Assembly (NCBI GenBank): GCA_026387455.1
Contig: JAPLLR010000046.1
Span: forward strand, 4,921-68,920
DNA from: Candidatus Omnitrophota bacterium
GTDB lineage: Bacteria; Omnitrophota; Gorgyraeia; Gygaellales; Profunditerraquicolaceae
Direction of reading: 5' to 3'
DNA length: 64,000 nucleotides
The notes below the pieces were generated by a model. The model searched no databases. It was not told the origin of the DNA and worked only from the letters and a program-made list of their open reading frames with translations. Positions 4,441 to 11,100 of this stretch are shown in pieces. The position numbers and the translations under genes were made by a program. Positions within the stretch are counted from its first letter, which is position 1. Every line of letters starts with the position of its first letter.

Positions 4441-5058
4441 ATGGTTATGTCTAGGACGGCACGCTTCATTCCACGGTATGGCTATCTACACATTATGTCA
4501 CGAGGTAATAATCGCCAACGCATTTTCTCATATGCACGCGACTATCGATTTTATTGCTCATGTTTGAGGAAACTTAAGGCAGAGGAGTCAGTTAAGATTC
4601 ATCACTATTGCTTGATGCCGAACCACCTACACCTTTTGCTTGGTGTAGGGCCGGCAAGCAATGTCGGCCGCTTCATGCAAAGGCTTGGGCTGAAGTATTT
4701 CTACTATTATCGCGCAAGGCGCGATTATATAGGGCATCTATTGCAAGGTAGGTTTAAGAGCAAGATAATTGTTGATGAAAAGTACTTTCTGCAATGCGGA
4801 AAGTATATTGAGTTAAACCCGGTGCGAGCGCAGCTGGTGAGTTTTCCGGAAGAATACGCTTATTCAAGCTATCGGCATTATGCCTTAGGAGGGGAAGATG
4901 AGATCGTCGATGACGACTTTTTCTATCTTAGCCTGCACAACGATGCCACTCGTCGAAAGGAGCTTTATTCAAATATGCTCTTTGATGAGAAAGGGTGTGC
5001 GAAACAATTGCATATTGATTCTTCTAACTTAATGTTTAACAATGAGTTAATAGAGTAG
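4441..5058 (+). CDS. REP-associated tyrosine transposase / IS200-like Y1 transposase (HUH superfamily, COG1943-like)
   Basis: 205 aa with a strong SD (GAGGAGG) before the ATG. HUH motif in HHYCLMPNHLHLLL; GHLLQGRFKSK; C-terminal YIELNPVRAQLV..PEEYAYSSYRHY with the catalytic-Tyr region typical of this family. Confidence 0.8.
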   Translation: MVMSRTARFIPRYGYLHIMSRGNNRQRIFSYARDYRFYCSCLRKLKAEESVKIHHYCLMPNHLHLLLGVGPASNVGRFMQRLGLKYFYYYRARRDYIGHLLQGRFKSKIIVDEKYFLQCGKYIELNPVRAQLVSFPEEYAYSSYRHYALGGEDEIVDDDFFYLSLHNDATRRKELYSNMLFDEKGCAKQLHIDSSNLMFNNELIE

Positions 5059-6392: not shown

Positions 6393-7637
6393 ATGGAAGG
6401 CCTAATGATTGCAAAGCCAGCAAGATTACTTATTTTAGTTTTAATAATTGTTTTGAGCCTATTGTCTTCTAGGGTTGAGGCAGAAGATTATTATAGCGGC
6501 AACCCCTACTCTTCTCCGGAGCCAAGTTCTTCCGACAATCAGGCCCCCAATAATAGTTACAATAATTCCACGGTGATAAGCTCGTTTAATCCGCAGCCCG
6601 GCGGAGTAAATAATATTCCTAATAGTTACAATAATTCCACGGTGATAAGCTCGTTTAATTCGCAACCAAGCGCAGCTTATAAGGCCCTTAATAGTTCCAA
6701 TAATTCTATGGTGATAGGCTCGCTTAATTCGCAGTCCGGCGCAGCTTATAAGGCCCCTAGCAATTACAATAGTTACACGGTGATAAGCCCGTTTAGCTAT
6801 AACACATCTTCGCAGCCCGGCGGAGGATATAATAACTCGGGCAGCATAACAAGCTATCCTAACAGTTACAACAATTCCACGGTGACATATTCGTTTAGTT
6901 ATAACACACCTTCGCAGCCCGGCGGGGGCTATAATAACTCGGGCAGCATGACAAGCTATCCTAGCAGTTACAATAATCCCATGCTGACAAGCCCGTCTAG
7001 TTATACCACGCCTTCGCAGTCCGCAGAAGCTTATGATAACTCAGAAAGTATATACTCCAGCTCTGCTTCGCTATCCAATTACAATAGCGCTACTAATACG
7101 CCGAATTATGATAATACTGTGGCTCAAAGCGCCCCAACAATATATAATGATTTATCAGAAGCTATTTATAACTCTCCGGTAGTAACACAAGCCGAGAAAT
7201 TTGGTTTAAGCGTAGAGAAAATCGGAGGGGGGGTAGGGATTACGCCGTACGATCCTGTGAAAGATGCTGTTGTATCAGCTCTTAACGAAGGTTATGAATC
7301 AGTTGTAGTAACCGGCGAGGGGGTATTGATACCCAATCCGATACAAGGTGACAAGAAAAGCGTAGTTATAGACAATAATAATCCTTCCCTTATCGGGCCG
7401 AATGGTCTTTATAGTACGTACAGGTCTACAGCAGATTTGCTCGGGGATATTTCTTCTCATGATGCTAAAGTGGCTGCGGCAGCATATACCCCAACTTCAG
7501 TAGCGCAACCGACTGGCATGCTTTCTAATTATAGCCCGGCACCTGTAAATTATAAAAGCGATACTCCAACAAGTCAGAATTATCAGTATAATGTAGCGAC
7601 CCCACAGGTTGAAGATCCCCAAATAAAGGTAGAATAA
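6393..7637 (+). CDS. secreted low-complexity Asn/Ser/Tyr/Pro-rich repeat protein with a more ordinary C-terminal domain
   Basis: 414 aa. Signal/anchor KPARLLILVLIIVLSLLSSRVEA. Repeats of NSYNNSTVISSFN.QPG / SYNT.SQPGGGYNNSGS.TSYP. The C-terminal region of about 170 aa (AEKFGLSVEKIGGGVGITPYDPVKDAVV...) is not low-complexity. No function recognised. Confidence 0.7.
   Translation: MEGLMIAKPARLLILVLIIVLSLLSSRVEAEDYYSGNPYSSPEPSSSDNQAPNNSYNNSTVISSFNPQPGGVNNIPNSYNNSTVISSFNSQPSAAYKALNSSNNSMVIGSLNSQSGAAYKAPSNYNSYTVISPFSYNTSSQPGGGYNNSGSITSYPNSYNNSTVTYSFSYNTPSQPGGGYNNSGSMTSYPSSYNNPMLTSPSSYTTPSQSAEAYDNSESIYSSSASLSNYNSATNTPNYDNTVAQSAPTIYNDLSEAIYNSPVVTQAEKFGLSVEKIGGGVGITPYDPVKDAVVSALNEGYESVVVTGEGVLIPNPIQGDKKSVVIDNNNPSLIGPNGLYSTYRSTADLLGDISSHDAKVAAAAYTPTSVAQPTGMLSNYSPAPVNYKSDTPTSQNYQYNVATPQVEDPQIKVE
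6541..7010 (+). repeat. in-frame tandem nucleotide repeats inside the Asn/Ser-rich gene
   Basis: A 39-nt exact repeat, aatagttacaataattccacggtgataagctcgtttaat, occurs at 6552-6590 and 6621-6659 (69-nt period). A second repeat family, ttcgcagcccggcgg...tataataactcgggcagcat, starts at about 6809 and 6911 (102-nt period). Confidence 0.85.
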
Positions 7638-7646
7638 TGACACAGT

Positions 7647-7680
7647 AATGTCCACTCTATAGATTGATTGTCCAATCTGT
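7647..7680 (+). repeat. pair of AATGTCCA-motif sites downstream of the Asn/Ser-rich gene
   Basis: aatgtccactctat (7647-7660) and attgtccaatctgt (7667-7680), in the same orientation as the upstream pair. Confidence 0.6.
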
Positions 7681-7852
7681 TCTGATTTCTTCATAGACGT
7701 GAAAATTGGGTCAGGATTATGTTTTTGCTTCAACTTTAGCTAAATAAATGATTCTCATCACCATTTTTTAGCAGGAAGTAAACTCTTTTAGTTGCAATAA
7801 TTAGCGGATTTTAAAGGAAAGAAAGCGGTATCAAAACAAGTAGATTTTATGC

Positions 7853-7880
7853 TTGACAGCGACGATCTTAATGATATACT
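7853..7880 (+). promoter_or_regulatory. near-consensus sigma70 promoter driving the riboswitch leader of the giant gene
   Basis: -35 TTGACA (7853-7858), 16-nt spacer, extended -10 TGaTATACT (7872-7880). Confidence 0.65.
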
Positions 7881-7889
7881 TTGGGTGTA

Positions 7890-8000
7890 ATGAAACGAAA
7901 GGGCAAACCAGGAGTAATCCTGGGGCGCAAAGCCGCGGATCCTAGAAGTTGGATTAAATAATTTTAAGTTTCTAGTTGTTAGGATAGCCGGGCTGCCGAA
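7890..8000 (+). promoter_or_regulatory. c-di-GMP-I (GEMM-I) riboswitch-like aptamer
   Basis: Conserved GEMM-I blocks occur in the right order. These are ACGAAAGGGCAAACC (7895-7909); a hairpin CCAGGA-GUAA-UCCUGG capped by a GNRA-type loop (7908-7923); GGCGCAAAGCC (7924-7934); a long second stem (AUCCUAGAA 7939-7947 pairing with UUCUA 7970-7974 and GGAU 7982-7985); and a 3' block AGCCGGGCUGCC (7986-7997). Compare the V. cholerae Vc2 aptamer as I remember it: ..ACGCACAGGGCAAACC-hairpin(GAAA)-GGGACGCAAAGCC-stem-GGUAGGUAGCGGGGUUACC. Confidence 0.7.
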
Positions 8001-8044
8001 TACCGACGAAAAAATCAGTATTTGCCAGTTCGGCTTTTATTTTT
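7993..8044 (+). terminator. putative intrinsic terminator / riboswitch expression platform
   Basis: Imperfect hairpin CTGCCGAATACCGA (7993-8006), loop cgaaaaaa, TCAGTATTTGCCAG (8015-8028). An alternative outer pairing is GCCGAA (7995-8000) with TTCGGC (8029-8034). It is followed by TTTTATTTTT (8035-8044). The left arm overlaps the 3' end of the aptamer. Confidence 0.45.
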
Positions 8045-8139
8045 AAGTAGTTAATAAGTAGTTTTAAAAATACTTTATAAACGAGAATATGAAAAACAAG
8101 AGGTTTTACCTCATAGTATTTAAATTAAAAGTATAATAA

Positions 8140-11100
8140 ATGCCTAATCAAAAGCCACGGACAGAAGAAGAGAATTCGCTAGAGCAACCCGAGACCCAGG
8201 TGAAATTTGTTTCCAAGTTCCAGGCCTGGATCCGCGTGGTTGCTTTTATTGTTGTAGCGGTCTTTCTTCCGGAGCAGGTAGCCCAGGCAGCGCAGTATGA
8301 TTGGCGCGTGCTCTGGAACAAGCCCGGCGTGACAACTTTTACCCCCAACTATCTTGCTAATCCTGATTCTCTGCGCAATCTGGATATCCCCCTAACCATA
8401 AAGAAGATCCTCAGTGACATCGCCAATAAGCAAGTCAATGCCATAAAGCTTTCTGACAATCTTACCATTGAGCTGGATAGGCCTCTAGAAATGTCCACTG
8501 TGCGCATTGAAGAGATCTTCAACTGGCTCAAGGGCAGGCCTTGCGGCTCAAAAGCGCTTTATGATTTCTTAAGCTTTAAGGGTATCCAAGCCTCTGAGCA
8601 AGATATCGCAGTAATGGCTTTGACCGTGGATATCTTAAATAACGTGGTTAAGCCTGAAGGAAACCCCGAAATTATTCTCAACTCTCTATATGCTTTGTCT
8701 AAGGCTTCTGAGTTCTTCGGCCTTAAGACTTATCCGGTTAAGCTTGCAATAGGAGAGCCTGTTGCTTCCTTAGCGCCATTCTTGGCCCATGTCAACGGCA
8801 ATCACTATGTCTTAGTTACGCGCATAGCAAATGGCAAAGTATATTTCAGCGATCTGCATAAAGAAGAATTTTTGGCCCTAGATAAATTTGCCGAGAAGTT
8901 TACCGGCAATGCTTTAGTCACTCAGCTGATTGATGGCGTTACTGAGCTTAGCGTTAAAGAAGCGATGCAGGTGATGGGGGCAAATGACGATGATTTTGTT
9001 GGGCCTCCAGCTCCAGCGCCCGCTCCACCTAGCTCAGACTTTGTTGGGCCTCCAGCTCCTGCACCAGCTCCTGCACCTGCATCTGCTCCTGCGGCTCCAA
9101 GCTCGGCTTCGTTAAACTCAGGCTATCAGCCGGGCGGCTATAATGGTAATACTTGGGTTCCTCCTTCTGTTGCTACTGCTGATGGCGGTAGGGTTGCTGT
9201 AGGGCCGGTTAGTTCAGGGATAGCCGAAGCCTATAACGCAGCAAATGCAGCGCCTTCACTATCTGCGCCGGCTCCATATTTAGATCGTTTTCAAAGTTCT
9301 GATCTAGGCACAGCTCCTACACCAAAATATGTGGCTCCTTCAGTATCTGCGCCGGCTCCTGTCGCTCCAGCGGCAATAAAGTCTGCTGATTATGCAAGAC
9401 GGCAACAAGCCGAAAACGCATTTAGCTATAGTCCCGGAGCAGGCACTAGTGATTATTATAAAGTCCCGGTAATAGACCAAGAGACAGGGCAGACCATAAG
9501 AACAGAATTAGTGAACAAGCACATTACAGATAGTGCTGAATCTCGCAGAGTCGCTGAAGGATTATTAAAAGATCAGGGCATACAGGTCCAGGGATCTACC
9601 TTGACAACCCTTAAACCTTTAGAACAGCTTGGCACCGCACCTCTTCTCCCGGATAAAATTTTATTTGCAGGAGATGGTAAAACGCCATTTTTGTCATCAC
9701 TCCCTTCAGCGACTAACGGTATTCCTAATTTGGTGGAGCACCAGATCTTGGTGGTGGCTGAAAAAGGAACTCTTCATTATAATATGTATGTTCCTCAAGC
9801 AAACGCTGATATTGCGCCTATCTATGTAGGAGATCATGCTCAGCTGAAAGGGACTCCAGGTTGTCCGAGTGGAATTTGTATGGATGCTGGCTGGAAAGGT
9901 GATACTGCAGCTCGTAATGATGGTGCAGCTTTTGTAGATATTAAAACATGGACGGGATGGCATACAACTACAGGCGAAGTCGCACCCTATGAGCAATTTA
10001 CTAATGGGGTATTTCATATTGGTAAAACTGCGTCAGAGCCACATTTCTCAGGAAACCCTATTGAGAGAGTAATTTTGCAAGATAACGTTGCAGTAGGCAT
10101 TAGTACGCTAGGCCAAACTTCTGCTTATCAACAGCCGGTTGTACTAACTGATGGTACGAAAGTTTCTGCTGAAGGCTGGAGAAATAATTATACGGTTAAT
10201 GTAGTCAAACCGGTTGTCCAGGTAGGACCGGATTTGAAAAACACAAGATATGATGGTTTCTATGTATCGCATGATCAAGCTGGGAATTCTGTTGGAGTAA
10301 GCCCCCTGATGACTAGAGTGGACATAATGGCAGATGTAAACCAGAGGAAAAGTCAGGGGGAGCTATACACACCAACCATGCCCGGAGATAATGTCATAGT
10401 TTTCGCCGGAGATGTAAATTCTTATATTTCAACCGGGGCTGCGATGACTAAAGTTGAGGCATTTGCAAGAGTTCCTAAGATTACCAATGATTTTTATAAT
10501 TATCAGTGGGGCAATAATTTTTATCAGCCTAAAGAATTAGTTGGTTCAGCAGAAAATTATGCTACCGGGCAGGTAATACCTTTTACTAACCCTCAGGAAT
10601 TTATTGATAATACTCATATTAGAATTGCCGCTCCTTTGCAGGATGGAGTTAGCGCTACCGGAGAAATAACCAGTATGTCCGGCTGGAAACAGGATGGTTT
10701 TATGATCCCGCTTGCTCCTTTTACCTCGGCCGACGGGATGGGTTACACAAAGAACGAGCTCACCGGAAAAGTAAAATCGTTCAAGATAGAGGGGGTTGAT
10801 TTTAAAGTTGATTATGCCGCCAAGCAGCCCGATATATTTAATCAGAAGTTATCGGTATATGGCACCGGAGAAGCATTCGCGGTTTTACCGCCTTATAAAA
10901 CGGCGACTGATGGAGGGGCGAGCATCTATATGACAGGGACTAAGGTTGAATTAGGTGTGGGATATAAGGCGGGAGATTCAATAGCAGTTATTTCAACTCA
11001 AGGTATTCAAGGAGGCCGGATAGAATTTCTCGTGCCGAATTTAGATATTAATAAGAATATTCAAGATCAGATAAAAGATGCTACCCAGCCTATGGTTATA

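Follow-up and report, generated by a model that had tools for sequence, protein, structure and literature searches.

A class-I cyclic di-guanosine monophosphate (c-di-GMP) riboswitch acting on transcription is proposed here to control a giant gene of the candidate phylum Omnitrophota, whose giant genes run to tens of thousands of codons and are among the longest known. The element lies in a 64,000-nt stretch of contig JAPLLR010000046.1 (Candidatus Omnitrophota bacterium, GenBank assembly GCA_026387455.1), referred to below as the window and numbered from its first letter. Based on a match to an Rfam clan, on the covariation of the helices and on the comparison of orthologous leaders, positions 7853-8044 on the plus strand most probably constitute the promoter and the riboswitch-containing 5' leader of the giant gene that starts at ATG 8140, a reading to which we assign a probability of about 0.85. 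From its predicted pocket, the aptamer would bind c-di-GMP, and from the architecture of the leader, binding would switch the gene on.

The aptamer was located at 7893-8001 on the plus strand, and its assignment to the c-di-GMP-I (GEMM-I) class is based on an Rfam clan match, covariation and invariant alignment columns. When the whole window was scanned with Rfam cmscan at gathering thresholds, this site was the sole match, covering the full model with 64.7 bits and an E-value of 5e-13. The top model was RF03167 (c-di-GMP-I-GGC; gathering score 59), a member of clan CL00126, and a second family of the same clan also exceeded its own gathering score at 7893-8001, masked by clan competition. Because the tally of masked matches equals the tally of RF03167-best matches in the scans of orthologous loci, with one such match in the window, the masked family points to RF01051, which would thus also pass its threshold at this site. 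A sequence-only reading of the region, made by a model without database searches, had predicted a match to RF01051; the assignment to the c-di-GMP-I clan above the gathering score stood, whereas the family named was not the best model. In a permissive scan of 7800-8140, all remaining matches were noise with E-values above 2, and the c-di-GMP-II model (RF01786), which that reading had suggested as a negative control, gave no match in the same interval even at E <= 10, as expected.

The structural parts of a GEMM-I aptamer can be placed along this site. The characteristic sequence blocks are GGGCAAACC at 7901-7909, GGCGCAAAGCC at 7924-7934 and AGCCGGGCUGCC at 7986-7997. P1 is formed by the pairs C7896-G7998 and G7897-C7997, and the junction is formed by G7903-C7928 and C7904-G7927. 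The first hairpin spans 7908-7923, in which 7908-7913 pairs with 7918-7923 around the GNRA loop GUAA (7914-7917), and P2 consists of 7931-7943 paired with 7981-7994, together with a 37-nt apical insert. In type 1 GEMM aptamers, the GNRA tetraloop of the first hairpin docks into a receptor in P2; by inspection, P2 of the window aptamer contains an asymmetric internal loop rich in A, and an A that is invariant stands ahead of GGAU at the place expected for the receptor. The blocks, the GNRA-capped hairpin and the long second stem described in the sequence-only reading were all recovered at or near the positions given there. The only protein-coding alternatives for 7853-7961 are overlapping chance open reading frames (ORFs) of 26-30 codons, and they were discarded.

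Covariation was examined in a MAFFT alignment of 21 copies, to which the GEMM-I structure of the Rfam consensus was applied, P1 being moved by one base so that CG pairs with CG. Standard pairs were formed in 96.4% of cells, changes on both sides were found in 10 of 21 pairs (38 cells), and none of 500 shuffles reached any of five covariation measures. When the 3' partners were slid by 1-3 columns, pairing amounted to 28-46%, and no more than 4 pairs showed changes on both sides. Covariation is seen in each of the six pairs of the first hairpin, in three pairs of P2 and at the junction, where the position of C7904-G7927 is occupied by C-G (10 copies), U-A (7) or U-G (4). The hairpin loop is a GNRA tetraloop in all 21 copies (GUAA, GCAA, GAAA, GCGA, GUGA or GGAA). 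Ten further distinct metagenome sequences together with the window gave 99.6% pairing and 8 pairs changed on both sides; this alignment of the window and 11 metagenome copies, which were not used in model building, was fitted to the model and therefore leans towards the structure. The two stems put forward in the sequence-only reading are thus kept through compensatory changes in homologous leaders. A covariance model built from the 21-copy alignment recovers solely those copies and one further locus, L029, and finds no copy within the window beyond 7893-8001. The c-di-GMP-I match at L029 lies on the opposite strand in a different context.

The expression platform is an intrinsic terminator at 7986-8044 on the plus strand, in which a hairpin at 7986-8035 is followed by the U-tract UUUAUUUUU, ending at 8044, 95 nt ahead of ATG 8140. 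The left arm consists of 7986-7995 and 7997-8003, and the right arm of 8018-8024 and 8026-8035. In the folding of 7985-8050, the hairpin has a free energy of -24.1 kcal/mol (z -4.3), and none of 200 shuffles was as stable; a simple terminator scan, whose limits are exceeded by the loop and bulges of this hairpin, did not report it. The hairpin and T-run noted in the sequence-only reading about 95 nt before the start codon were thus recovered by folding. The overlap with the aptamer that it described is also present and is larger than had been stated, since the left arm starts at 7986 instead of 7993 and takes up 16 nt of the aptamer, namely the lower 3' strand of P2, the equivalent of pocket base C92 of Vc2, the reference riboswitch from Vibrio cholerae, and the 3' strand of P1.

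This arrangement is shared by all 33 related copies examined, in each of which the left arm is the 3' strand of the aptamer. In all of them, AGCCGRGYUGCCGAAUA pairs with a downstream UAUUUG-N-CARYYCGGYU, followed by UUUUUAUUU. Where the sixth base of the left arm is A, the opposite base is U in 5 of 5 copies, and a U at the eighth base is opposed by A or G. By inspection, the arms show partial covariation with some C-A mismatches, and the left arm is constrained by the aptamer. Since the left arm is the 3' strand of the aptamer, the aptamer and the terminator are mutually exclusive, and since no separate anti-terminator element was found in the 33 copies, P1 and P2 stabilized by the ligand can only prevent termination. 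In the whole leader, the terminator conformer is the minimum-energy fold (-50.6 kcal/mol), and the best fold with the right arm blocked reaches -35.3 kcal/mol. The ON direction foreseen in the sequence-only reading is supported by this architecture, namely by the identity of the left arm with the 3' strand of the aptamer in 33 of 33 copies and by a terminator fold that is more stable by about 15 kcal/mol.

A sigma-70-type promoter lies directly upstream at 7853-7880 on the plus strand, with the -35 hexamer TTGACA at 7853-7858, a 16-nt spacer and the extended -10 element TGaTATACT at 7872-7880. With the TG and 11 of 12 hexamer positions matched, it was the top site within 7000-8600 in a consensus scan, in agreement with the near-consensus promoter that had been read from the sequence. 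TTGACA, a spacer of about 17 nt and TGTTATACT are kept at the equivalent place in orthologous leaders. The aptamer begins 12 nt past the promoter, and transcription probably starts near 7887.

From these elements, a possible mechanism for the control of the giant gene was proposed. RNA polymerase would start near 7887 at the strong promoter and synthesize the 109-nt aptamer (7893-8001). Without ligand, 7986-8003 would pair with 8018-8035 to form the terminator hairpin, and together with the U-tract this could stop transcription about 95 nt before the start codon. If c-di-GMP is bound during synthesis of the next 20-35 nt or so, P1 and the lower part of P2 may be locked; the pocket would consist of G7902, A7929 and C7996, with the C7926-G7987 pair and the docking of the GNRA loop onto P2 as braces. 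With the left terminator arm sequestered in this state, the polymerase could continue into the gene, whose length exceeds 56 kb. High c-di-GMP would in this way license synthesis of the giant protein, as an ON switch under kinetic control.

The distribution of the leader was examined with the first 287 amino acids of the giant protein as query, which identified 38 loci in Omnitrophota metagenome-assembled genomes at no more than 66% identity (numbered here with the prefix L). A CL00126 aptamer above the Rfam gathering score lies on the same strand upstream of the giant gene at 20 of these 38 loci, and in 19 of the 20 the distance from the aptamer end to the start codon is 80-185 nt (138 nt in the window). 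A scan of metagenomes with the aptamer core pattern returned 80 loci, 11 of which have the N-terminus of a C39-type giant protein downstream. The same promoter, aptamer and overlapping terminator thereby precede an orthologous giant gene of the C39-peptidase type at 19 genome loci and on 11 metagenome contigs. The rest of the 81 metagenome matches precede ordinary genes of the c-di-GMP regulon in other organisms, e.g., adhesins and a GGDEF/HD-GYP protein, which argues that this type of aptamer sequence is generic for c-di-GMP-I and not specific to giant genes.

At the twentieth locus, L014, a gene for a 391-residue glycine-rich membrane protein (1784-2959) stands between the aptamer and the giant gene, and its stop codon overlaps the giant ATG; from this layout, the riboswitch of L014 would control a two-gene operon. 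L012 and L018 are preceded by a coding sequence that resembles the extra gene of L014, and neither the Rfam scan nor our own covariance model found a riboswitch within the upstream sequence covered (620 nt and about 3 kb, respectively). In L022 and L023, the promoter and the downstream leader are kept, both the aptamer and the left terminator arm are lost, and our own covariance model found no aptamer copy; the joint deletion fits the two acting as one unit. What is retained there (about 2750-2970 in L022 and about 2790-2970 in L023) comprises the promoter, a U-rich remnant, a block that follows the terminator and an upstream ORF (uORF). L022 comes from the same genome (JBAZKC01) as L017, which has the riboswitch. 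The upstream sequence of L008, L013 and L026 is too short to judge the presence of a riboswitch, and the distant matches L028-L038 were left out of the examination of leaders.

Variations on the leader were observed at several loci. An extra element, AAGCCACGG(AACGAAAAUCCGC, then a hairpin), lies between the promoter and the aptamer in L004 (about 1735-1785), L005 (about 2670-2720) and L016 (about 2727-2776), and the same element is found directly 5' of the aptamer in L007, L010, L015 and L020; the window does not contain it. AAGCCACGG duplicates the 5' strand of P2 and could therefore compete for the 3' strand of P2. The contig of L006 carries a second c-di-GMP-I aptamer at 86-233, 2.6 kb upstream of the giant-gene riboswitch, with a very long P2 insert and an overlapping terminator of its own. 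It precedes a gene for a 177-residue secreted protein that, by eye, resembles a transglutaminase or a cysteine peptidase.

How the RF03167 label is to be read depends on the ligand pocket. In Vc2, G20, A47 and C92 contact c-di-GMP (PMC4744006, PMC5888326), and a C-G pair between the two helices has been described as universally conserved (PMC4744006). With Vc2 numbering mapped via the sequence blocks and the Rfam alignment, the equivalents in the window are G7902, A7929 and C7996, and the interhelical pair C44-G83 corresponds to C7926-G7987. Across the 21 aligned sequences, no variation occurs at the equivalents of A47, C92, C44 and G83, and the G20 equivalent is G in 19 of 21, including the window. 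The predicted pocket of the window aptamer is of the canonical c-di-GMP-I type, G/A/C and not G/G/C. The name "GGC" denotes the bases at positions 20, 47 and 92, which agrees with the printed RF03167 consensus. In the cmscan alignment, the consensus GGGACGCGAAgCc is set against GGGGCGCAAAGCC in the window, and the conserved G of the variant (consensus GCGAAgCc) aligns with the A47 position, where the window has A7929 within GCAAAGCC. Taken at face value, RF03167 would mean a variant with an altered pocket that senses something other than c-di-GMP, and its rank as top model for the window (64.7 bits; gathering score 59) and for 13 orthologous leaders speaks for it. The margin by which the window passes that gathering score is small, with orthologues falling on either side, and of the leaders that are clearly orthologous, some fit RF03167 best (59-66 bits; gathering score 59) and others RF01051 (57-64 bits; gathering score 35). 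This alternation, together with the A found at the A47 position in 21 of 21 aligned copies, indicates that the label reflects similarity in P2 and the 3' strand and not in the pocket. The face-value reading was rejected because the variant-defining base is absent and the best model alternates, and a different ligand is regarded as very improbable. As a practical warning, the Rfam label "GGC variant" can fall on aptamers with a canonical pocket. The cyclic AMP-GMP (c-AMP-GMP, GEMM-Ib) class is marked by A at the G20 position, where the window has G7902. Among the orthologues, the G20 equivalent is A in L010 (aptamer 2737-2836) and C in L019 (2696-2813). Genome JAPLLW01 contains L019 together with a paralogous giant gene, L001, which has retained G at this position; from the difference in this pocket base, ligand specificity may have diverged between the paralogues.

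Several observations weigh against a c-di-GMP riboswitch as the regulator of the giant gene. The 37-nt insert of P2 is AU-rich with weak predicted stability (-2.3 kcal/mol), and P1 consists of just two clear pairs (CG with CG), its shortness and high conservation leaving no informative covariation (83% paired in helix 1). The top Rfam model is the GGC variant, for which the literature consulted gave no ligand, and the RF01051 score of the window is masked by clan competition. In addition, four orthologous loci (L012, L018, L022 and L023) are without the riboswitch, so that this control is not universal. It is also conceivable that the main product is the terminated leader RNA of about 155 nt, which would buffer or store c-di-GMP, with control of the giant gene being secondary. 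In its favour are the near-consensus promoter, the dominance of the terminator fold in the absence of ligand, by which short transcripts should be abundant, and the precedent of merRNA in another bacterial predator (PMC3627812), but the same conserved ORF always lies downstream on the same strand at a conserved distance, which is the signature of cis-control and makes this explanation improbable. The direction of switching was itself deduced from the architecture, and the uORF and conserved blocks between the terminator and the start codon could add translational control; a switch that turns the gene off, or that acts on translation instead of transcription, is nevertheless given hardly any weight. 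The left arm coincides with the 3' strand of the aptamer throughout the 33 copies without a separate anti-terminator, the U-tract is canonical, and the hairpin lies about 95 nt from the start codon (120-185 nt in most orthologues) and cannot mask the ribosome-binding site. A transcriptional ON switch responding to c-di-GMP remains the preferred reading of 7853-8044.

Further conserved elements flank the riboswitch. A block 5' of the -35 hexamer at 7818-7835 (plus strand, AAGAAAGCGGTATCAAAA; consensus AAGAAARCGYTNNCTTTT) stands 16-18 nt ahead of TTGACA at almost every orthologous locus, L022 and L023 without the riboswitch among them. It is a candidate transcription-factor site or UP element, which could add a second regulatory input. 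Past the terminator, a leader block at 8050-8070 (plus strand, GTTAATAAGTAGTTTTAAAAA; consensus YTTAWTAAGNAGTTTYANAAA) recurs at the equivalent position in every orthologous leader of the alignment, also in the aptamer-less L022 and L023. It is followed by a short uORF at 8089-8139 (plus strand, MKNKRFYLIVFKLKV), which ends in TAA TAA abutting the giant ATG. This is a shortened version of 15 codons without the G-rich block; most orthologous leaders have 24-35 codons. In most leaders from L001 to L027, the uORF begins about 50 nt past the terminator and ends at or overlaps the giant ATG (TAATG, TAAAATG), and it is fused in frame to the giant ORF in L005, L023 and L027. It holds an invariant GGGGTAAGGGG block whose frame differs by locus (GVRG or WGKG), and the reading of GGGGTAAGGGG in two frames suggests conservation at the RNA level.

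These elements allow a broader picture to be drawn, in which the riboswitch would be one layer of a conserved multi-layer licensing system for the largest bacterial genes. The other layers would be the site upstream of the promoter, the post-terminator block and the coupled uORF; the terminated leader RNA, which would be abundant, could serve as a c-di-GMP buffer in the way put forward for merRNA, and contact with prey or a surface could lift c-di-GMP past the threshold set by this buffer and lead to an all-or-none commitment to the transcription of at least 56 kb. In this full form the picture is speculative and, in our estimate, unlikely.

The giant ORF occupies 8140-64000 on the plus strand, preceded directly by an in-frame stop, and, with the window ending before any stop codon is reached, comprises at least 18,620 codons; that the frame is open from ATG 8140 to base 64000 agrees with the gene of more than 56 kb described in the sequence-only reading. 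At its N-terminus, the protein carries a signal or transmembrane segment; a peptidase C39 domain occupies residues 182-261, and further along there are matches to ICMT (Pfam isoprenylcysteine carboxyl methyltransferase) and a response-regulator receiver domain. Upstream of the leader lie genes for two T2SSE-family secretion ATPases, an IS200-type transposase, a minus-strand tetratricopeptide-repeat (TPR) protein and two proteins without a Pfam match. Such a neighbourhood agrees with the report of a secretion-system locus ahead of the giant genes in Omnitrophota (10.1101/2023.11.21.568195). An exact-protein look-up of the upstream ORF at 6393-7637 gave no recorded entry. The transposase ORF (IS200-like Y1; 4441-5058, plus strand; PF01797, E-value 8e-11) lies between the T2SSE ATPase genes and the TPR gene. 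It has also been reported that PilZ genes lie just downstream of most giant genes and that GGDEF domains occur inside many of them, which associates c-di-GMP signalling with giant-gene loci already; a role of the giant protein in adhesion or predation has been put forward as a hypothesis (10.1101/2023.11.21.568195). The riboswitch input would link to these PilZ and GGDEF components.

Neither a riboswitch nor a promoter is mentioned in the giant-gene preprint (10.1101/2023.11.21.568195) or in a 2026 preprint on complete Omnitrophota genomes, and a full-text literature search for Omnitrophota together with riboswitch gave nothing relevant. The RNA class and its mechanism are already known; the novelty lies in the target, and in the fact that the complete leader is conserved among the Omnitrophota giant genes of the C39 type. 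As an ON switch for c-di-GMP that is kept across these genes, the element would be the first concrete, testable regulatory input for the longest known bacterial genes.

By the covariance-model match, the covarying helices, the pocket bases and the interhelical pair, the element is a predicted member of the c-di-GMP-I class. It shares with Vc2 and RF01051 the two-helix architecture, the GNRA loop on the first hairpin, the blocks GGCAAAC, GCAAAGCC and AGCCGGGCUGCC, the pocket bases G20, A47 and C92 and the interhelical C44-G83 pair. In contrast to Vc2, P2 carries a long and variable apical insert (37 nt in the window and about 10-100 nt in orthologues), P1 is minimal, and the window and most orthologues have G at the equivalent of A43. 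The window aptamer probably scores slightly higher on RF03167 than on RF01051, the latter score being inferred. The consensus of P2 and the 3' strand in RF03167 (gCcAcGGguC ... GacAGCCggGcUGCcgaag) is almost identical to the Omnitrophota leaders, whereas the G of this variant at the A47 equivalent is A in the window and in every orthologue. The c-AMP-GMP riboswitches have the same fold and belong to the same clan (PMC7266159); with G7902, the window differs from them at the position where A is found in L010 only and C in L019.

Among riboswitches of predators, merRNA of Bdellovibrio bacteriovorus is a c-di-GMP-I riboswitch with a proposed tie to the switch between attack and growth phase; it has no conserved downstream ORF and has been proposed to act as a c-di-GMP store (PMC3627812). 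In contrast, the window element is a cis leader of a conserved gene. Of the characterised systems, Bc2 of Bacillus thuringiensis is the nearest analogue; it is a class-I c-di-GMP aptamer upstream of the collagen adhesion protein gene cap that works as a transcriptional ON switch, in which termination within the leader keeps cap under strong repression until high c-di-GMP relieves it (PMC4933901). The design of the window leader is alike in its class-I aptamer and predicted ON logic, and the target of Bc2 is a large surface protein. Bc2 belongs to the Bacillota and not to the Omnitrophota and has been validated experimentally, whereas the window element is known from its sequence; with a target of more than 56 kb, the cost of read-through in the window would be greater by orders of magnitude than in Bc2.

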